Shown here: piece by piece, positions 27,305 through 41,342 of the stretch
How positions within the stretch are numbered: the stretch's first letter is position 1
Layout: every line of letters starts with the position of its first letter
NCBI GenBank assembly: GCA_041737125.1
Contig: JBGSSJ010000012.1
Span: 2,637 to 66,636 of the forward strand
DNA: 64,000 bases
Source of the DNA: Minisyncoccia bacterium
GTDB taxonomy: Bacteria > Patescibacteriota > Minisyncoccia > Phycocordibacterales > UBA9973
Direction of reading: 5' to 3'
Translations under genes and position numbers: made by a program
The notes under the pieces: generated by a model
Database searches by the model: none
Told to the model about the DNA's origin: nothing
What the model saw: only the letters and a program-made list of their open reading frames with translations

Positions 27305-27380
27305 TGGTGCCGAGGACCAGAGTTGAACTGGTGACATCTCCCTCTTCAGGGGAGCGCTCTACCAACTGAGCTACCTCGGC
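27305..27380 (-). tRNA. tRNA-Phe (anticodon GAA), CCA encoded
   Basis: Reverse complement GCCGAGGTAGCTCAGTTGGTAGAGCGCTCCCCTGAAGAGGGAGATGTCACCAGTTCAACTCTGGTCCTCGGCACCA folds into a canonical cloverleaf with a GAA anticodon. Confidence 0.9.
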
Positions 27381-27395
27381 ATATTATTATTTGTT

Positions 27396-27524
27396 AAAAA
27401 CCAAACTCGTTATCATATCTGTCGCTTGTCTTACCAAAACAGCTATCCGAACATATACTTTTATCCCTTAAACCAACCTCGTTATCATATCTGTCGCTTG
27501 TCTTACCAAAACAGCTATCTCGGC
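27396..27524. repeat. Two ~57-bp direct repeats with 72-bp period, 42/42 identical core (27406..27447 and 27478..27519); each ends in a degenerate copy of the tRNA-Phe 5' acceptor/D-arm
   Basis: The core CTCGTTATCATATCTGTCGCTTGTCTTACCAAAACAGCTATC occurs twice. Its end TACCAAAACAGCTATCTCGGC can be compared with the tRNA sequence TACCAACTGAGCTACCTCGGC. Confidence 0.7.
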
Positions 27525-27547
27525 AAGAAACTATCTAGGCTAAAAAA

Positions 27548-27847
27548 TTATCTTTGATTCAATAATTTAATTAATTCATCCATCTGCTTGCTATCACCTA
27601 AACCTTTTGAAATATCACTTATATTCCCCATGTTTGATACACCACCTGAATATATATTCAACATGTTACCCATAAGAGGCTTCACGAAGTAATATGCCCC
27701 GAAAGAGAACAAGATAATGACAGTCCAATAGCCTATTCGATAGATAGCCGCCCATTTCTGATTGCGAACTACCTTCTTTAGCATCTCATTATTCTCTTTT
27801 GCAATGACTAAACTCTCTTCCAAGAGTCTTTTTGTCTCAGGATCCAT
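27548..27847 (-). CDS. Hypothetical small membrane protein
   Basis: 99 aa; one central TM (WAAIYRIGYWTVIILFSFGAYYFV); located between two tRNA genes. Confidence 0.35.
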   Translation of the reverse strand: MDPETKRLLEESLVIAKENNEMLKKVVRNQKWAAIYRIGYWTVIILFSFGAYYFVKPLMGNMLNIYSGGVSNMGNISDISKGLGDSKQMDELIKLLNQR

Positions 27848-27886
27848 ACGCTAAACTTTAGCATATTTGAGATAAAAATAAAAGTG

Positions 27887-27958
27887 TGCCTCCACTCCGA
27901 ATCGAACGGGGATCTATTCCTTAGGACGGAACTGTTCTATCCATTGAACTATGGAGGC
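27887..27958 (-). tRNA. tRNA-Arg (anticodon CCT), CCA not encoded
   Basis: Reverse complement GCCTCCATAGTTCAATGGATAGAACAGTTCCGTCCTAAGGAATAGATCCCCGTTCGATTCGGAGTGGAGGCA gives a cloverleaf with a 7/7 acceptor stem, a T-loop TTCGATT and an anticodon loop GTCCTAA. One C-A mismatch sits in the T-stem. Confidence 0.7.
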
Positions 27959-27965
27959 TATATAT

Positions 27966-27991
27966 AAAAGCACCATTTCTGGTGCTTTTAT
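27966..27991. terminator. Bidirectional hairpin terminator downstream of the glutaredoxin-like gene
   Basis: AAAAGCACCA-TTTC-TGGTGCTTTT. Confidence 0.6.
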
Positions 27992-28020
27992 AATACGTCA
28001 AAAATGTATAAAATGCTACT

Positions 28021-28269
28021 CTATAGACCTAGAAGCTGGTCGATCTTCGGCTGATTGAAGCCGACAACCATTTCATCCCCGATGAAGATTACAGGCACAC
28101 CCATCTGGCCACTCTTCTGTACCATTTCCTTCCTCTTCTCTAAATCAGCGGCTACATCGTAGTCCACATATTCTATATTCTTCTCTTTAAAATAGTCTTT
28201 CGCTTTGTGGCAAAAGTGACATGATGGAGTACTATATACAATTACTTTATTCATAATTTTTACACCCAA
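28021..28269 (-). CDS. Glutaredoxin-like protein (NrdH/Grx family thioredoxin fold)
   Basis: 82 aa; CHFC redox motif at the N-terminus of helix 1; GVPVIFIGDEMVVG glutaredoxin signature. Confidence 0.75.
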   Translation of the reverse strand: MGVKIMNKVIVYSTPSCHFCHKAKDYFKEKNIEYVDYDVAADLEKRKEMVQKSGQMGVPVIFIGDEMVVGFNQPKIDQLLGL

Positions 28270-28385
28270 AAATAGGGCAAATAATTTCTAATGACACTCA
28301 TTATATCATAACAATAATTATTGCAACACTTGACAGAGGTGCTATCAGCGGGACCGTGAATACACTTATCGAAGCTATTTTGGTG

Positions 28386-28456
28386 TGCGGGATACGAGAA
28401 TCGAACTCGTGTCTCATCCTTGGGAAGGACGCATCATACCACTAAACTAATCCCGC
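28386..28456 (-). tRNA. tRNA-Gly (anticodon CCC), CCA not encoded
   Basis: Reverse complement GCGGGATTAGTTTAGTGGTATGATGCGTCCTTCCCAAGGATGAGACACGAGTTCGATTCTCGTATCCCGCA has a 7/7 acceptor stem, a perfect T-arm ACGAG-TTCGATT-CTCGT and an anticodon loop TTCCCAA. The D-stem is weak (wobble pairs). Confidence 0.7.
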
Positions 28457-34333: not shown

Positions 34334-36691
34334 TTATTGTTGGCCTTGTAATGGTAATTTGGCTGGTTGTTTTGCGGCTTCCTTTTTATCTTCTGTTTTT
34401 TCTTCTGTAGGTGCTACAACTGGATTATCTATGGATTTAATAGCATTCTTTATTTCTTCATTGTCAGGAATAATCTTGGCTAGAATTTCGTACTGTGCGA
34501 GTGCATCACTCTTACGTCCTACTTTAGAGTAAGATTGTCCCAACAAGAATCTAGCATTTAGATAAGTTGGATCTAGTATTACAGCTTGTTCGAAAGCTCC
34601 AATAGCTTCTTGGTATTGTGAGTTATTTGAACGTAGTAAACCTAATCTGAAGAATATAGTTGGATCATTTGGGTTTACTTGAGCTGCTCTCTCAGCCTGC
34701 TTTATGGCCCCAGCCAAGTTCCCTTCATTAGTTTCTATCTGAGCAAGAAGGAATATAGCATCAGTATAGTTTGGCTTAAGAGTTAGAGCTTCATTTATAT
34801 ATCTACGAGCTTCTGTATTATTTTTATTTATAATTTCTAGAGCTGCTTTAGATAGTAAGATGGAAGGATTATGAGGAGCGAGTTTTTGCGCACTAGTATA
34901 AGCAGATAGAGCTTTATCATAACTACCCTCTATAGCAAGCGGCACGAGAGAACTATACATATTACCCAAATTAACATGATTTATATATTGATTTGGATTC
35001 TGTCTCACAGCAAGTATAGCAGACTGTTCGGCTAGATTTACTAATCTCTGAATATTGGACTTCAAGAGATCTTCAGAAACATTCTTCTCATTTAATTGAA
35101 GACCTATGTGATTGACATATATACCAGAGATAGTTCTGTAGTAAATATCATTCTCATCTAGACGTATAGCACTACCAAGCAATTGCTCACCTTTTACCAA
35201 AGATTCTATTGTATTATTTACTGTTGAACCTTTTGAGAAATAAGCTATAGAGATGAATTTCTCTGTATAAACATATGCAGTGGCAAGCGTTAATACCATG
35301 AGACACATAATTCCAAGGATTGAGAAGAAGCTATGGCGTGGATCACCTAAGAAAGAAAATTCTCTTACTTTTATTAATTGAGCTTGTACCATCAACCCTA
35401 TTAATATTCCACTTGATACAAATGCAATTGAAAATATTACTATACTAGGAGTATAGAATATAATAGTGAACCACGAATAGATTGCAGTGATGAAAGTTAT
35501 GAATGTAAAATAATTCGACGAAGTACTATTGAACATGTTACGGAATGACTTAGCGCTTCTCTTTATGAGAACACCTAGGAAAAGTAACCATGAGAGTATA
35601 CCTACAATACCAACAGTCGCAGCGAAAGTCATAAGTGAACTAAAGCCATTATTAAAATCTATATTCCAGTATTGAGAAAGTACGACTTCTTTTGGTTGCC
35701 ATAGCGCCCAGTTATGCACAAAAGTATTTGGCCCTGTACCGAAGAATGGATTGTGCTTAATGGCTTCAAGTGCAATACCAGATGTAGTAGACACAAGTGG
35801 CCTCACAACTAAGTTTGGTATATTTATATACTGTGAAGTAAAACTATATATAGGATTATTTGCGAATATAAATAGTAAAGATAATAATATTACAACAAGA
35901 GTAGTAAATGGAAATCTCTTCTTGTTCTCAGTAGAGACATTATTATCTTGCGATTGTTGTATTGACACTTTATATACGAACAAGACTAGAGCAAACAATC
36001 CAATCATAATCCAAACAATCGAGAAATTAATGATTACAAGGAAGAATAAACCAGATACTAACAAGAAGTACTGTAGGAACAACATAAAACCCTTATTTTT
36101 CATAAATTCAATCGTAAACAGTACAAGTAATATAATCAATCCAAAGAATAATCCGAAATCATTCCAAGAACCGAACAAGTTGCCATTTGATACACCACTT
36201 AGCAAACCCGGGGCAAATCGATCAAAACCTATAAAGATATGGACCAACTCAAATACAGATAGTATTGTCGCGCCCAAGAAAAGTAACATGTAGAAATACC
36301 ACAACCTTTTCTCTTTTTGGAAATGAACAGAAGATAGGAAGAACAGTATGAAAAGTACAAGCATTGAGCTAGCAGTACCTACTTCAAACCCACTACCAAA
36401 GATCGATATATACTTAGATGAGGAGAAAAAAGATGCAATCAAAAATACGACAGGTATAGCCCCTGCAAATAACAAAATATTATCTTTAGGCAAAGAGAAC
36501 TTACCTTCACCTAAACGTGCCATAAGCCAGAATGCTAAAGAAAGGACCGCTCCTATAGATAATAGGAAACCCTTATTTGCATCGAGGGTAATCGGTACAT
36601 AAGGTATGAATAAGAATAATGACAAGAACAATGTTCCAAGAATTGTCCCAAATGATAATTTATCGAATAATTCAACTTTTTTAGATTCCAT
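34334..36691 (-). CDS. O-antigen ligase/polymerase-like (Wzy_C/WaaL-type) polytopic membrane protein with C-terminal TPR repeats
   Basis: 785 aa; ~12 TM helices with a periplasmic loop containing AIKHNPFFGTGPNTF (H-N...GxG motif of the O-antigen ligase family); the C-terminal ~300 aa form tandem TPR-like repeats (A..Y..A....P.N). Confidence 0.6.
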   Translation of the reverse strand: MESKKVELFDKLSFGTILGTLFLSLFLFIPYVPITLDANKGFLLSIGAVLSLAFWLMARLGEGKFSLPKDNILLFAGAIPVVFLIASFFSSSKYISIFGSGFEVGTASSMLVLFILFFLSSVHFQKEKRLWYFYMLLFLGATILSVFELVHIFIGFDRFAPGLLSGVSNGNLFGSWNDFGLFFGLIILLVLFTIEFMKNKGFMLFLQYFLLVSGLFFLVIINFSIVWIMIGLFALVLFVYKVSIQQSQDNNVSTENKKRFPFTTLVVILLSLLFIFANNPIYSFTSQYINIPNLVVRPLVSTTSGIALEAIKHNPFFGTGPNTFVHNWALWQPKEVVLSQYWNIDFNNGFSSLMTFAATVGIVGILSWLLFLGVLIKRSAKSFRNMFNSTSSNYFTFITFITAIYSWFTIIFYTPSIVIFSIAFVSSGILIGLMVQAQLIKVREFSFLGDPRHSFFSILGIMCLMVLTLATAYVYTEKFISIAYFSKGSTVNNTIESLVKGEQLLGSAIRLDENDIYYRTISGIYVNHIGLQLNEKNVSEDLLKSNIQRLVNLAEQSAILAVRQNPNQYINHVNLGNMYSSLVPLAIEGSYDKALSAYTSAQKLAPHNPSILLSKAALEIINKNNTEARRYINEALTLKPNYTDAIFLLAQIETNEGNLAGAIKQAERAAQVNPNDPTIFFRLGLLRSNNSQYQEAIGAFEQAVILDPTYLNARFLLGQSYSKVGRKSDALAQYEILAKIIPDNEEIKNAIKSIDNPVVAPTEEKTEDKKEAAKQPAKLPLQGQQ

Positions 36692-36744: not shown

Positions 36745-39576
36745 CTATACCACGATATTCACCAACCTCCCTTTCACATATATAACCCTCTTTACTTCCC
36801 TACCTTCTATCCATGGCATTATTACCTTGTCTTCTAATGCTTGTTTTTTGATTATTTCTTCATTCATATCTGAGTCTATCATCATCTCTGTACGCACTTT
36901 ACCATTAACTTGAACAACTATTTTGAAATTGCTGTCTATAACTTTCTTCTTATCCCACTTTGGCCACTTCGAGACATGTATGGATTTCTTACTAATCCAA
37001 AGCTCTTCAGTTATATGCGGAGCGAATGGTGAGAGTATCTGCAGAAATAATTCAAAATCTTTCTTTGATATACTTTTCGTCTTCTCTACTTCATTAATGA
37101 AAACCATCATTGCAGATATAGCAGTATTGAAACTCATAGACTCAATATCTTCTGTAACTTTCTTGATTGTTTTATGGAGAAGTGTTTCTAATTCTTTATC
37201 CGTCTTACTTGCAAAACTATTACCACTAATACGCCAAACTTTCTCCAAGAATCTTCTGGAGCCTATAATACTCTCAGTACTCCAGGACACTGCTTGATCG
37301 AATGGCCCTATGAACATCTCATATATACGTAAAGTATCAGCCCCGTATAGCTTTACTATATCTTTCGGGTCAATTGTATTACCTACTGATTTAGACATTT
37401 TTACTCCTCCCTCGGCAAGTATCATGCCATGGGAAGTGCGCTTCATATATGGCTCACTTGTAGGGACAAGCTTCAAATCATATAAGAACTTATGCCAGAA
37501 GCGAGAGTACAGTAAGTGCAGTGTCGTATGCTCCATACCACCGTTATACCAATCTACACCATTCTTCATCCAAGCCCGGAGAGCCTTCTTTGATGCGAGT
37601 TCTTTATTATTCTTCGGATCTGTGTACCTTAGGAAGTACCATGAGCTCCCTGCCCAGTTCGGCATTGTGTCAGTCTCCCTTTTGGCTTTGCCTTTACACT
37701 TTGGGCACTTTGTATTGACCCATTTATGCATGATAGCAAGTGGACTCTCGCCATTATCTGTTGGCACATAAGACTTCACTTTTGGTAAAGTTACCGGTAA
37801 ATCTTTCTCTGGTACAGGGACATAACCGCACTTTTCGCAGTGTATTATAGGTATTGGTTCACCCCAGTACCTCTGACGGGAGAATATCCAATCACGAAGT
37901 TTGTATTTTGTTACAATTTTACCACCAACTGCTTTCGTAATTTCTTTTTGAGCATCTACGTTTGATAAATCATTAAACTTACCGGAATTCACTAATATAC
38001 CTTCGTTTGTATAAGCTTGATCTTTCCCCAACATATTATTCCAGAAAATTACAGCTTCCTCTTTATCGATAATTTTTTCTACTTCTTCTTTAGTAAGCCA
38101 TACTATGTCATGTAAATTCTTCTCATTGTCACTTGTATCTTCTTTCTTTCCATCTATTAATTCAAAATATGCTCCTACTACATTTGCCCATCTATTCTCT
38201 TTTTTGTGAGGTGCATAGAATTGTGCATGAGCTCTACCCAATGTACTTATGAATTTTATATTCTGGTATCCAGTTTCTTCTCTTATTTCACGAGCACCAG
38301 CAATATGAGGATCTTCACCATCAGTTCCACCTATTACGAAAGTCTTCCAATTCTGAGTCTTCCACATTAAGCACAGATACTTATCTTCTGACCAATGCTT
38401 CACTATAGATACAATAGTATCTCTTTTTACAAAAGGTTGATCTTTCCTTATTGCACTCTCACCTTCAGTTGTTATAAAAAGTGGGGCGACAACTTGGCGA
38501 ATCTCTTGATTATATTTCTTCGCAAATAGGAAATCACGTTCATCGTGTGCAGGCACAGCCATAACAGCACCAGTACCATAATTCACCAATACATAATCTG
38601 CAATCCATACAGGTACTTCTTCCCAATTTGCAGGATTTATAGCTTTAATACCTTTCACTTCAACCCCAGTCTTTTCTTTGTCTTCTGCGGTGCGATCGAG
38701 TTCTGACTTTTTCTTTACATCTAAAATATATTTCTCTACTTCATTCCAATTTGAAATTTGTGGTTTCAGTTTATTAACTAATTCATGTTCAGGTGCAAGA
38801 ACAACATAGGTCACACCAAAAAGTGTATCGGCTCTTGTTGTAAATACTTTAATTTTCTCTGGAGAATTTTTTATAGAAAATTCTATTTCACTTCCTTCAC
38901 TCTTCCCTATCCAGTTCCTTTGTTGAATTTTTATCTTCTCTAAATAATCCACATCATCTAGATCTTTATCTAGTCTATCTGCATACTTAGTAATGGCTAG
39001 CATCCATTGCTCTTTCTCCCTCTTCTCTGTATCTCCACCACAGCGCTCACATTTGCCATTTACCACTTCTTCATTGGCAAGGCCTATCTTACAATTCAAG
39101 CACCAGTTTATAAAGGTCTTCGACTTATAAGCCAAACCCTTTTTATACATTTGAAGGAAGATCCACTGTGTCCACTTATAATATTTCGGATCAGTAGTAT
39201 TTACTTCACGTGACCAGTCGAAAGAGAATCCAATGGATTTAAGTTGCTTACGGAACATATCAGTATTCTGTTTGGTTACTTTCTCTGGCTGTATACCTGT
39301 CTTTATTGCGTAATTCTCTGTAGGTAAGCCGAAGGCATCCCAGCCTATTGGGTAGAGAACGTTGTAGCCTTCCATTCTGCGCTTCCTTGAAATTATATCC
39401 ATCGCAGTATTCGAGCGTATGTGGCCCACATGAAGTCCCGCTCCAGATGGGTATGGGAATTCTATAAGTCCGTAGAACCTTTTACCTTTGCCTCCGTTCT
39501 TTGCATGATAAATTTTCTTTTTATCCCAAGCCGCTTGATGTTTCTTTTCAATTTTATTATGGTCGTAGTTTTTCAT
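36745..39576 (-). CDS. leuS: Leucyl-tRNA synthetase with an inserted Nudix-hydrolase-like domain
   Basis: 943 aa; HVGH and KMSKS class I motifs; editing-domain motifs TTRADT and GTGAVMAVPAHDERD; conserved RDWIFSRQRYWGEPIPI. A ~134-aa insertion between the editing domain and the RDW block carries a Nudix box. Confidence 0.85.
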   Translation of the reverse strand: MKNYDHNKIEKKHQAAWDKKKIYHAKNGGKGKRFYGLIEFPYPSGAGLHVGHIRSNTAMDIISRKRRMEGYNVLYPIGWDAFGLPTENYAIKTGIQPEKVTKQNTDMFRKQLKSIGFSFDWSREVNTTDPKYYKWTQWIFLQMYKKGLAYKSKTFINWCLNCKIGLANEEVVNGKCERCGGDTEKREKEQWMLAITKYADRLDKDLDDVDYLEKIKIQQRNWIGKSEGSEIEFSIKNSPEKIKVFTTRADTLFGVTYVVLAPEHELVNKLKPQISNWNEVEKYILDVKKKSELDRTAEDKEKTGVEVKGIKAINPANWEEVPVWIADYVLVNYGTGAVMAVPAHDERDFLFAKKYNQEIRQVVAPLFITTEGESAIRKDQPFVKRDTIVSIVKHWSEDKYLCLMWKTQNWKTFVIGGTDGEDPHIAGAREIREETGYQNIKFISTLGRAHAQFYAPHKKENRWANVVGAYFELIDGKKEDTSDNEKNLHDIVWLTKEEVEKIIDKEEAVIFWNNMLGKDQAYTNEGILVNSGKFNDLSNVDAQKEITKAVGGKIVTKYKLRDWIFSRQRYWGEPIPIIHCEKCGYVPVPEKDLPVTLPKVKSYVPTDNGESPLAIMHKWVNTKCPKCKGKAKRETDTMPNWAGSSWYFLRYTDPKNNKELASKKALRAWMKNGVDWYNGGMEHTTLHLLYSRFWHKFLYDLKLVPTSEPYMKRTSHGMILAEGGVKMSKSVGNTIDPKDIVKLYGADTLRIYEMFIGPFDQAVSWSTESIIGSRRFLEKVWRISGNSFASKTDKELETLLHKTIKKVTEDIESMSFNTAISAMMVFINEVEKTKSISKKDFELFLQILSPFAPHITEELWISKKSIHVSKWPKWDKKKVIDSNFKIVVQVNGKVRTEMMIDSDMNEEIIKKQALEDKVIMPWIEGREVKRVIYVKGRLVNIVV
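38029..38430 (-). other. Nudix-hydrolase-like domain inserted in LeuRS (aa ~383-516); Nudix box at nt ~38263..38331
   Basis: GGTDGEDPHIAGAREIREETGY matches G-x4/5-E-x7-REUxEExGU (Nudix signature with one spacing deviation), flanked by beta-strand-like sequence typical of the Nudix fold. Confidence 0.6.
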
Positions 39577-39584
39577 AGAAAATC

Positions 39585-40142
39585 TTATTTATTAAACTTC
39601 TTTACTGCAAGCCATATGAGTAAACCAAGAGCGATACCAAGTATTGCGACTTTGGATAATCTATCTGCAAGTGACCAGTAGCGCATAGAAGCAATAATAA
39701 GGGATAATACCCCACCCCAAGCAAAAGCTACAGATAGTATAGAAATAGTGATGAATCCAGTCGAAACTATAAGGAATACTCCAAAAATAATCAGAGTGAT
39801 GAAAACTTTCTTCTCATAAGATTCACGAGCTTTGTCATAATTCAACTGATTCGTATAATTAGAATTACAATAACCATCTATTGTAGTTTTACCTTTTTCA
39901 TTAGGATAAGCATTCTCTGTCCACTGTCCTCCAGCAGAGACGCATTTATCTTTCGTTTTTATCTCTTCTACTACTTGGGCTGGCTTTATGTAATCCTCAT
40001 AAACTGGCTCTTTATACACCAGAGAAACAGTATAATTTGCAAATAAATTTATAACAATAATAATAGCGAAAATTATTGAAACATGAACGAACCTCGGTGT
40101 CTTCTTTTCTATTATTTGATTTTGATTTATTTGTGTATCCAT
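39585..40142 (-). CDS. Hypothetical membrane protein (N-terminal TM, cysteine-containing extracytoplasmic domain, C-terminal three-TM bundle)
   Basis: 185 aa; hydrophobic segments at aa ~20-40 and ~110-185. Confidence 0.35.
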   Translation of the reverse strand: MDTQINQNQIIEKKTPRFVHVSIIFAIIIVINLFANYTVSLVYKEPVYEDYIKPAQVVEEIKTKDKCVSAGGQWTENAYPNEKGKTTIDGYCNSNYTNQLNYDKARESYEKKVFITLIIFGVFLIVSTGFITISILSVAFAWGGVLSLIIASMRYWSLADRLSKVAILGIALGLLIWLAVKKFNK

Positions 40143-40185: not shown

Positions 40186-40731
40186 ATGGAACATCTTACG
40201 AAGAAATCCGAAGCAACGCTCGGGCATGCAGCAGCGAATGCTACTAGGTGGATAGGCTCTACCAGATCCCTAATCATCCACACTATCCTATTTGCAGGAG
40301 CTTTTTCTTTAGTATTCTTTGGTTTTGAATTTGATAAAATCCTCCTTGTGGTAACGACTATTGTATCTCTCGAAGCTATATATCTATCTATCTTCATCCA
40401 AATAAGTGTAAACAATCAAGCTAAGCACTTGGAAGAAGTGGCTGAAGATGTCGGTGAAATCCAGGAGGATGTCGAAGGAATTGAGAAAGATATCGATGAG
40501 ATTCAGGAAGACGTGGATGAAATCCAGGAAGATGTGGAAGGTATTGAGAAAGATATCGATGAGATTCAGGAAGACGTGGATGAAATCCAGGAAGATGTAA
40601 GCGAAGAAGATGAGGAAGAAACAATTATAAAACAAGATGAGGCTATGCTCTCTCGCATTGAGAATACACTACAAATACTTATAAAAGATATAGAAGACCT
40701 AAAGAAGCAGCAAGAAAATAAAAACAAGTAA
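40186..40731 (+). CDS. DUF1003-like membrane protein with a C-terminal acidic tandem-repeat/coiled-coil tail
   Basis: 181 aa; two TM helices flanking an SxxxQNRQ-like region (ISVNNQAKH), then EIQEDVEGIEKDIDEIQEDVD repeated. Confidence 0.4.
   Translation: MEHLTKKSEATLGHAAANATRWIGSTRSLIIHTILFAGAFSLVFFGFEFDKILLVVTTIVSLEAIYLSIFIQISVNNQAKHLEEVAEDVGEIQEDVEGIEKDIDEIQEDVDEIQEDVEGIEKDIDEIQEDVDEIQEDVSEEDEEETIIKQDEAMLSRIENTLQILIKDIEDLKKQQENKNK
40456..40600 (+). repeat. 63-bp (21-codon) in-frame tandem repeat, ~2.3 copies, encoding EIQEDVEGIEKDIDEIQEDVD
   Basis: GAAATCCAGGAGGATGTCGAAGGAATTGAGAAAGATATCGATGAGATTCAGGAAGACGTGGAT is repeated with a few synonymous changes. Confidence 0.8.
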
Positions 40732-40754: not shown

Positions 40755-41342
40755 CTAATTTTGTTCTAAATTTATTTCTACCTGTCCTTGGCGAAGTATT
40801 TCTACTTTGCCATTCGAGAGCCTTATCAAGGTCGACGGCTTGGCTATACGCGTACTATCATTCACATACAAATCAATATTCTCTCCGAAGTAGCTCTCTG
40901 CCTCTCTTATATTTCGAGCAGGCTCGAGACCTTGCGGATTCGCACTAGGAGCTACAAGTGAGCCTACAGTATTTATAAGGTTGAACAAATCTTCATTCTT
41001 CGCATCTACCATGCGCACTGCTAGAGTATTCCTCCCTCTGTGCAAATAGAACAATGCATCATCATTACTATCAAGTACTACACTCACCTTATCTGGCCAT
41101 ATAGTCTCGAGTATTTTCCTATCTTCTTCACTTAGTTCTACTCCAAGTTTAGTTAAATGTTCATATGAACTTATGAGTACTATGCAAGGCTTATCTGTAT
41201 CACGACCGCGTACTTGGTACAGCTTCTCTACGGCACCCTCATCAAGAGCGCTTGCAAGTACTCCATAAATAGTGTCGGTCAGTGCGACGACTAATCCTCC
41301 ACCTTTTATGACATCTATTGCTTGTATCCAATTACTTTTCAT
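40755..41342 (-). CDS. tsaC: L-threonylcarbamoyladenylate synthase (TsaC/YrdC/Sua5 family)
   Basis: 195 aa; YrdC fold motifs (GGLVVALTDTIYGV, KPCIVLISS, GSLVAPSANP). Confidence 0.75.
   Translation of the reverse strand: MKSNWIQAIDVIKGGGLVVALTDTIYGVLASALDEGAVEKLYQVRGRDTDKPCIVLISSYEHLTKLGVELSEEDRKILETIWPDKVSVVLDSNDDALFYLHRGRNTLAVRMVDAKNEDLFNLINTVGSLVAPSANPQGLEPARNIREAESYFGENIDLYVNDSTRIAKPSTLIRLSNGKVEILRQGQVEINLEQN

Follow-up and report, generated by a model that had tools for sequence, protein, structure and literature searches.

The 64,000-nucleotide stretch analysed here (the window; contig JBGSSJ010000012.1 of a Minisyncoccia bacterium, assembly GCA_041737125.1) encodes a leucyl-tRNA synthetase (LeuRS) in which, by sequence alignment, a complete Nudix domain with predicted pyrophosphohydrolase activity takes the place of a surface loop of the CP1 editing domain. 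Residues 364-519 of the window protein fall between residues 362 and 374 of Thermus thermophilus LeuRS, which form a short loop on the CP1 surface, and insert-less orthologues have 8-11 residues at the same site (e.g. ...EVVSGGSILEKAYTEDGALVNSGKF). The LeuRS of T. thermophilus and Neisseria gonorrhoeae likewise carry only a short loop there (Thermus 363-373), whereas the window protein carries 159 residues and a second enzyme domain; we found no solved LeuRS that matches the insert region. The Pfam editing-domain model PF13603 (185 positions) matches residues 220-366, breaks off at model position 143 and resumes past the insert. A sequence-only reading of this DNA had described an insert of ~134 residues (38029-38430) lying after the editing domain; alignment to the insert-less and Thermus proteins lengthens it to 159 residues (38011-38487), and the broken PF13603 match moves it inside CP1.

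The identity of the insert was assessed with the Pfam NUDIX model (PF00293), as that reading had proposed. The model matched residues 396-501 of the full-length protein at 34.2 bits and the excised insert at 38-39 bits (gathering threshold 21.1; E-values 9e-10 to 3e-8), a sequence match far beyond chance. A PHROGs search returned generic Nudix families only. GGTDGEDPHIAGAREIREETGY is the sole Nudix box in the window; its E-x7-REIREETGY portion is intact, and it has G-x4-E, one residue short of the family consensus GGIExGE (canonical G-x5-E), as had been recognized from the letters. AlphaFold2 predicted the domain with high confidence (pLDDT, the per-residue confidence score, of 94.4 for the domain alone and 85-96 inside the full-length model) as an alpha/beta/alpha sandwich whose loop-helix-loop carries the box. 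In these models the domain folds as an independent alpha/beta/alpha module, tethered to the synthetase via a two-stranded connection, and the concern that the insert might not adopt a Nudix fold was not borne out by the prediction. Base composition over leuS showed nothing unusual at the insert.

The host gene itself is, from its sequence, a functional-looking bacterial LeuRS that has kept its synthetic and editing motifs. Its open reading frame (ORF) is uninterrupted, and the product matched NCBIfam TIGR00396 (leuS_bact) at 967 bits (cutoff 548), the match being divided in two by the insert. Retranslation recovered every canonical element that the sequence-only reading had listed for the 943-residue protein (HVGH, TTRADT, AHDERD, RDWIFSRQRYWG and KMSKS). 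The CP1 editing-site motifs TTRADT and GTGAVMAVPAHDERD are complete, and their residues (T246, T247, R248, D250, T251, H344, D345, R347 and D348) are invariant across 93 aligned LeuRS. The AlphaFold2 model of the full-length protein (mean pLDDT 85.2) superposed on solved bacterial LeuRS of T. thermophilus, Escherichia coli and N. gonorrhoeae with TM (structural similarity) scores of 0.77-0.85, and domain order, HIGH and KMSKS signatures, CP1 motifs and fold are the same as in these enzymes (1H3N/2BYT, 4AQ7/4ARC and 6Q89, respectively).

We then examined how widely the fusion occurs, using one genome per species and a 261-residue junction segment that includes the insert as query. A relative was encoded at 156 loci, and the best 80 of these cover essentially all of the query, insert included, at 46-83% identity. 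The insert is therefore carried by at least 80 species-level genomes of Paceibacterota/Parcubacteria, within the candidate phyla radiation (CPR), with titles including Candidatus Paceibacterota and Nomura-, Vogel-, Adler-, Kaiser-, Taylor-, Magasanik- and Moranbacteria; it is also present in 104 of the 120 best full-length LeuRS matches, so the absence from all relatives that the sequence-only reading had entertained was not observed. Some genome records with this Paceibacteria-type LeuRS-Nudix gene (L008, L013, L020, L022, L071, L079 and others) are titled Gammaproteobacteria, Saccharibacteria, Nanoarchaeota or Woesearchaeota, and these are probably mislabelled or mis-binned metagenome-assembled genomes. 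A protein identical to that of the window (P0143, in the protein-cluster collection) sits on a 67-kb NCBI contig. The fused proteins are automatically annotated as just 'leucine--tRNA ligase' or 'class I tRNA ligase family protein'.

Because the same fusion recurs in independent genomes, we exclude an artefact. The window does come from a metagenome-type contig, and an assembly chimera or mis-join could in principle create an artificial fusion, but we found no support for one: besides the 80 or more independent species-level genomes, more than 100 independent protein clusters from NCBI, JGI, ENA and Logan share the architecture, the reading frame is unbroken, composition over the insert is unremarkable and the insert is under strong selection (below). 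A chimeric origin is thus next to impossible.

Comparison of the insert with that of the closest genome gave a dN (nonsynonymous divergence) of 0.084 and a dS (synonymous divergence) of 0.99 (dN/dS ~0.085), a substitution pattern that indicates strong purifying selection. Among 217 LeuRS copies at the insertion site used in the window (site B), the predicted catalytic residues are near-invariant (E430, 216/217; E433, 212/217; E434, 217/217), as is G436 (214/217), and R429 is kept in 190/217; the same catalytic residues are conserved in free-standing copies of the domain. Outside the box, an aromatic pair lies at +16 (F453) and +17 (Y454), and fused copies conserve F/Y453 (95%), Y/F454 (92%), K458 (97%), N461 (95%) and R462 (90%), with the same pattern in free-standing copies, as well as E485 (88%), H489 (88%) and W493 (97%), with similar values in free-standing copies. 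Since these family-specific residues, together with R385, are kept equally in fused and free copies, the chemistry of the domain is probably the same in both settings.

This conservation bears on whether the domain is an enzyme at all. Nudix folds without hydrolase activity exist (NrtR is an example), and the insert could serve as a ligand sensor, a surface for binding tRNA or protein, or a structural brace for CP1. Non-enzymatic members of the Nudix clan have been listed (PMC5389931). Copies at a second LeuRS site (site A, described below) are partly degenerate in multi-copy proteins (n = 10; Q replaces the first E in 7/10 and a catalytic E in 4/10, and A replaces the R in 6/10), and one subclade has Q and A/M where the Nudix box normally has its first E and its R. 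However, the window copy and ~98% of the 217 site-B copies keep every catalytic glutamate, and insert-less orthologues show that no such brace is needed, so we strongly doubt a non-catalytic role. The degenerate binding module suggested in the sequence-only reading is disfavoured by the same near-invariant glutamates.

Orthologues that lack the insert are syntenic with the window gene. The shared order comprises YchF, Sua5/YrdC, a DUF1003-like protein, a DUF5671-family protein (in relatives), LeuRS, a TPR membrane protein, and MurJ and LepA (in relatives). Where the relatives have the DUF5671-family gene, the window has the 185-residue ORF, which gave no Pfam match. Fission of the insert into an adjoining free Nudix gene was considered from these neighbourhoods and set aside, as no Nudix gene was seen within 10 kb of insert-less leuS. 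Missing from close syntenic orthologues that have no Nudix gene within this distance, the insert appears to be dispensable. A neighbour-joining tree suggests at least five independent losses, but the tree is rough and, given the recombination signal, we take no count of events from it. A set of insert-less LeuRS in the same syntenic position (P0224, P0225, P0231, P0233, P0235, P0237, P0240, P0244, P0245, P0257 and P0258 (L162:10001-12358); P0237 is labelled Candidatus Nomurabacteria) has a shortened editing domain: these proteins are 770-790 residues long and lack both the Nudix domain and the next CP1 segment (GILVNSGKF...), and Q/MHDERD replaces AHDERD.

With a 174-residue insert query, an exhaustive HMMER search over 1.84 billion cluster representatives showed that the subfamily is small (334 proteins at E<=1e-3; 207 at E<=1e-10). 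LeuRS or LeuRS fragments make up 239 of the 302 fetched proteins that have the domain, 47 are free-standing (~160 residues) or short fragments, and 16 have another context. The last group includes one complete class II prolyl-tRNA synthetase (ProRS; P0351, 643 residues), in which the Nudix domain follows the HGTP anticodon-binding domain and precedes the ProRS C-terminal domain, five related fragments (including P0306, P0307 and P0384) and seven proteins that join a CP1 remnant to the domain. No non-synthetase partner family was identified among these 16 proteins, six of which were run against Pfam. Within the fetched proteins, the subfamily is thus, as far as their sequences tell, fused to aminoacyl-tRNA synthetases only or else free-standing. 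An independent complete ProRS-Nudix ORF of 641 residues was found on a metagenome contig (L082:1171-3096, forward strand), and the ProRS insert is rare (1 of 80 related ProRS loci in a metagenome scan).

Within LeuRS, the domain also occupies site A, the CP1 loop directly ahead of TTRxDT. The architectures observed are a single copy at B (as in the window), one copy at each site, two at A with one at B, two at A only, and a tandem pair at B; LeuRS with two or three copies include P0263, P0264, P0265, P0202, P0227, P0248, P0312 and P0331. Other inserts occur in related LeuRS (P0178/P0180/P0219/P0226; P0217/P0227/P0248; P0236/P0249): a Ham1-like nucleoside triphosphate (NTP) pyrophosphatase occupies site A (38 bits), an alpha/beta (Ser) hydrolase follows the RDW...CxxC block, and a DUF559/REase-like endonuclease, which might be connected with recombination at leuS, again sits at site A. 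The CP1-remnant proteins (P0017, P0369, P0391, P0395, P0397, P0400 and P0353) consist of the C-terminal half of CP1, the Nudix domain and a 'GIMINS' tail; they are ~275-295 residues long, except P0353 (388 residues, with an N-terminal extension). Those inspected lack the editing Asp (AHNQED, LHIQAH, AHIEED), and from their sequences they appear to derive from LeuRS. One free-standing member, P0004 (L081:6001-6495, forward strand), lies on a 696-kb contig with no adjoining synthetase, 800 bp from a second small Nudix gene of 99 residues (L081:7295-7594, reverse strand).

These contexts raise the question of whether the domain has any mechanistic tie to LeuRS. A house-cleaning pyrophosphatase that sanitises the nucleotide pool (e.g. 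of oxidised or non-canonical NTPs) might have inserted into a CP1 loop that tolerates it, in a streamlined genome where leuS is essential and constitutively expressed. Free-standing ~160-residue homologues with the same conserved residues are consistent with such an origin, as are the repeated loss of the insert with no replacement nearby and the placing of Mycobacterium smegmatis MutT1 (an 8-oxo-dGTPase) among the top fold matches; the unrelated enzymes found in LeuRS loops (Ham1, alpha/beta hydrolase and DUF559) likewise suggest a permissive scaffold. Against this, the only fusion partners among the fetched proteins are synthetases, with two LeuRS sites and an independent insertion into a class II ProRS. 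Aminoacyl-tRNA synthetases account for an estimated ~20 of ~700 genes in such genomes, so that a random second host would be unlikely to be one as well, and co-expression alone hardly explains two or three copies per LeuRS. We therefore regard a hitch-hiking enzyme as unlikely.

To compare the history of the insert with that of its host, pairwise divergence of core and insert was calculated among 104 fused LeuRS. Mean divergence was 0.278 for the LeuRS core and 0.604 for the insert, and the two were uncorrelated (Pearson r 0.055; in a Mantel test, 72 of 999 permutations reached the observed value). LeuRS pairs with ~92-93% identical cores hold inserts that are just 33-40% identical (P0191/P0199, core p-distance 0.074 and insert 0.652; P0175/P0216, 0.077 and 0.669; P0217/P0236, 0.081 and 0.60), and in such pairs sliding-window identity is 90-100% on either side and falls to 20-45% exactly across residues ~350-525. 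Conversely, P0187 and P0247 differ by 0.297 in the core and 0.118 in the insert, and the species representatives L053 and L055 by 0.14 and 0.022, with an insert nucleotide identity of 83-89%, above that of the flanks. The window shares its insert type with L001 (81-89% nucleotide identity in the insert, 70-79% in the flanks) but not with the equally close L006/P0145 (core 0.14-0.16, insert 0.55). Clustering gave ~33 insert types in the 104 proteins, and pairs of the same type are no closer in their cores than pairs of different types (0.263 vs 0.278). These sequences are most simply read as the outcome of recombination across highly conserved LeuRS flanks that has repeatedly replaced, added or removed the domain, with many old types maintained. 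By the same comparisons the domain is evolutionarily modular, having apparently been exchanged between LeuRS genes, duplicated, moved to the second CP1 loop, and lost.

Our favoured functional reading, which we hold tentatively as possible and no higher, is that of a tethered pyrophosphohydrolase acting on adenylate-derived 5'-5' polyphosphate nucleotides (diadenosine tetraphosphate, Ap4A, and its relatives). Ap4A-type nucleotides arise on synthetases from the reaction of ATP with bound aminoacyl-AMP. The Nudix domain would be an autonomous hydrolase held beside the synthetase, apart from aminoacylation and editing, and would cleave these by-products at source to AMP and ATP/ADP. That it would work beside, and not within, the LeuRS cycle is suggested by the insert-less orthologues, which show that LeuRS does without it, and recruitment of the same subfamily by class I and class II synthetases argues for a substrate common to synthetase chemistry. 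Ap4A hydrolysis also seems more plausible than the other functions proposed in the sequence-only reading. One of these, hydrolysis of aminoacyl-adenylates, was set aside since their acyl-phosphate is not a nucleoside-diphosphate-X linkage, and we know of no Nudix precedent for it.

Among solved structures, profile comparison placed the uncharacterised 2azw, AvrM14 and the lupin Ap4A hydrolase nearest to the insert (E ~1e-7), and fold comparison the Aquifex Ap4A hydrolase, the Rv2985 ApnA (diadenosine polyphosphate) hydrolase, the T. thermophilus Ndx1 Ap6A hydrolase and CT771, with identities of 12-20%. Enterococcus faecalis 2AZW, a structural-genomics entry annotated as MutT/nudix with no function, is free-standing and 17% identical to the insert. 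With the Nudix ApnA hydrolases (3I7U aq_158, 1VC8 Ndx1, 9CXX Rv2985, 1F3Y lupin and CT771) the insert family shares the fold, the box and an aromatic residue ~17 positions after the box; it differs from them in its own R385, K458, N461, R462, E485, H489 and W493, in an N-terminal strand and in being embedded in a synthetase, and its C-terminal helices are common to 2azw, unlike those hydrolases. In Nudix Ap4A hydrolases, a Tyr or Phe ~17 residues after the box stacks on adenine (PMC2425470), and Nudix specificity has been discussed in terms of an 'X-loop' (PMC5389931). The +16/+17 aromatic pair of the insert matches the stacking position, a correspondence that is suggestive and not exclusive, and an ApnA-type assignment drawn from the fold and profile neighbours together with this pair is only suggestive.

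Several results weigh against a role in Ap4A turnover. No NCBIfam equivalog was reached by the insert, the best being RppH (NF001938 etc.) at 19.3 bits against a cutoff of 116. The best profile match is uncharacterised, and decapping and inositol-pyrophosphate enzymes score similarly. A by-product scavenger would be expected to diverge together with its host, and the absence of correlation and the ~33 types described above go against that expectation. Finally, its absence from close syntenic orthologues marks the insert as dispensable.

The same neighbours raise the possibility of an RNA 5'-end pyrophosphohydrolase or decapping enzyme, which would strip a 5'-triphosphate, NAD or Np4N cap from tRNA(Leu) or other RNA near CP1. 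CP1 contacts the tRNA acceptor end. E. coli RppH, the rust effector AvrM14 (reported to be an mRNA-decapping enzyme) and the oomycete effector 8zjb are among the closest sequence and fold neighbours, and the sole NCBIfam matches of the insert are RppH models (E 6e-4). The PDB title of 8zjb refers to mRNA decapping activity. RppH and the AvrM14-type decapping enzymes are close by fold and profile, but RppH scores lie far under the curated family cutoffs (19 vs 116 bits), mature tRNAs have 5'-monophosphates, and the free-standing and ProRS-embedded copies would not be placed likewise at a tRNA 5' end. We consider this role very unlikely.

A serious alternative to Ap4A hydrolysis, although on balance a somewhat unlikely one, is a role in conflict or detoxification, with the domain as an exchangeable module that destroys a nucleotide-like molecule aimed at the synthetase (e.g. 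an antibiotic mimicking aminoacyl-adenylate, or a phage- or host-derived nucleotide) and with many types kept by selection. The sharp mosaicism across residues ~350-525 between near-identical cores, the near-identical inserts in diverged cores (L053/L055, P0187/P0247), the many types independent of core distance, the variation from one to three copies with a second insertion site, the further hydrolases inserted in the same enzyme (Ham1 and alpha/beta hydrolase) and the patchy presence within conserved synteny all point in this direction; exchange, copy-number variation, patchiness and co-occurring hydrolases are more typical of conflict than of housekeeping modules. A parallel is offered by NCBIfam NF040702 ('isoleucine--tRNA ligase, N-acetyltransferase domain-containing'), likewise a class I synthetase with a small-molecule-modifying domain, here of the GNAT type, and GNAT enzymes detoxify aminoacyl-nucleotide antibiotics. 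That family differs from ours in synthetase, fold and position, and the LeuRS insert is nested in the editing domain, occurs in one to three copies and is exchanged between genes. Other results argue against a conflict role: no PADLOC-DB 2.0 defence model matched the insert alone, the whole LeuRS or the fused ProRS (for P0004, only a weak match to a candidate model was seen, E 0.0026), and we know of no toxin or antibiotic of the synthetase-directed nucleotide kind for CPR bacteria. Moreover, the family-wide residues are the same in all types, which suggests one conserved chemistry and not diversified specificity, and the mosaicism could be neutral recombination in highly recombining populations. 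In a broader form, which we consider distinctly unlikely, CPR synthetases would carry a set of exchangeable 'guard' cassettes against nucleotide-type inhibitors or signals, with this Nudix insert among them. The set would also include the second and third Nudix copies, the Ham1-like and alpha/beta-hydrolase inserts in LeuRS and the Nudix domain in ProRS, and its ancient types would be kept by frequency-dependent selection and shuffled by recombination across the LeuRS flanks.

The features of the window are collected in Table 1. Gene order around leuS matches that at the insert-less orthologues L162 and L164, and the gene for the 181-residue acidic-repeat membrane protein also adjoins leuS in L164. 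An Rfam search of the window returned three tRNAs only, with nothing near leuS.

Table 1. Features of the window, with positions numbered from its first letter.
Feature	Position	Strand	Basis
leuS, bacterial-type leucyl-tRNA synthetase, 943 aa, host of the insert	36745..39576	(-)	ORF, TIGR00396, AlphaFold2 model
HIGH signature HVGH, aa 49-52	39421..39432	(-)	translation; invariant in 93 aligned LeuRS
CP1 editing domain, N-terminal part, aa 220-363	38488..38919	(-)	Pfam PF13603
T-rich motif TTRADT of CP1	38824-38841	(-)	translation
AHDERD with editing Asp345	38533-38550	(-)	translation
Inserted Nudix hydrolase domain, aa 364-522, 159 aa	38011..38487	(-)	alignment with insert-less and T. thermophilus LeuRS
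Nudix box GGTDGEDPHIAGAREIREETGY, aa 416-437; E430/E433/E434 predicted catalytic; predicted catalytic helix 423-435	38266..38331	(-)	motif, AlphaFold2 model
Predicted specificity 'X-loop' region FYAPHKKENR, aa 453-462, with K458, N461, R462	38191..38220	(-)	conservation, X-loop concept (PMC5389931)
Second family-specific conserved patch E485...H489...W493	38098..38124	(-)	conservation in fused and free copies
CP1 editing domain, C-terminal part after the insert, TNEGILVNSGKFNDL...KYKL, aa 523-560	37897..38010	(-)	aligns with T. thermophilus LeuRS 374 onward and insert-less orthologues
RDWIFSRQRYWG block of catalytic core, aa 561-572	37861..37896	(-)	translation, 93-LeuRS alignment
KMSKS loop, aa 726-730	37387..37401	(-)	translation, 93-LeuRS alignment
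785-aa multi-pass membrane protein with C-terminal TPR repeats, downstream of leuS	34334-36691	(-)	
185-aa membrane protein upstream of leuS, no Pfam match	39585-40142	(-)	
181-aa predicted membrane protein, weak DUF1003/DUF948 similarity, highly acidic repeated motif EDVEGIEKDIDEIQEDVDEIQ	40186-40731	(+)	
Sua5/YciO/YrdC-family protein upstream of leuS	40755-41342	(-)	
Three-tRNA cluster (Phe-GAA, Arg-CCT, Gly-CCC)	27305-28456	(-)	Rfam

No paper describing the fusion of a Nudix domain to LeuRS or ProRS turned up in a full-text literature search, and a 2017 survey of the Nudix clan does not contain the terms 'tRNA synthetase' or 'tRNA ligase' (PMC5389931). The statement in the sequence-only reading that the fusion is undescribed thus holds for the searchable literature; it does not hold for sequence space, where the fusion sits in public databases with precomputed Pfam annotation. 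What is unusual is that the domain is nested in the editing domain, that it has been recruited by both LeuRS and ProRS, and that it is exchanged at the domain level between near-identical essential genes.

Synthetases are among the best-studied enzymes, yet we found no paper on a catalytic domain nested in the LeuRS editing domain, and a second, predicted catalytic domain at this position is the majority state among the nearest relatives sampled from a large uncultivated bacterial lineage. That an essential gene can swap a folded domain so cleanly, in the manner of a cassette, provides a useful natural example of domain-level recombination, and the recruitment of one subfamily by synthetases of both classes is a directly testable functional link. 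If the domain degrades Ap4A-type nucleotides, it would physically couple the makers and the destroyer of alarmone-like molecules; if it guards against synthetase-directed nucleotide toxins, it would add a new layer to the conflict biology of CPR bacteria, placed in a core enzyme of translation.

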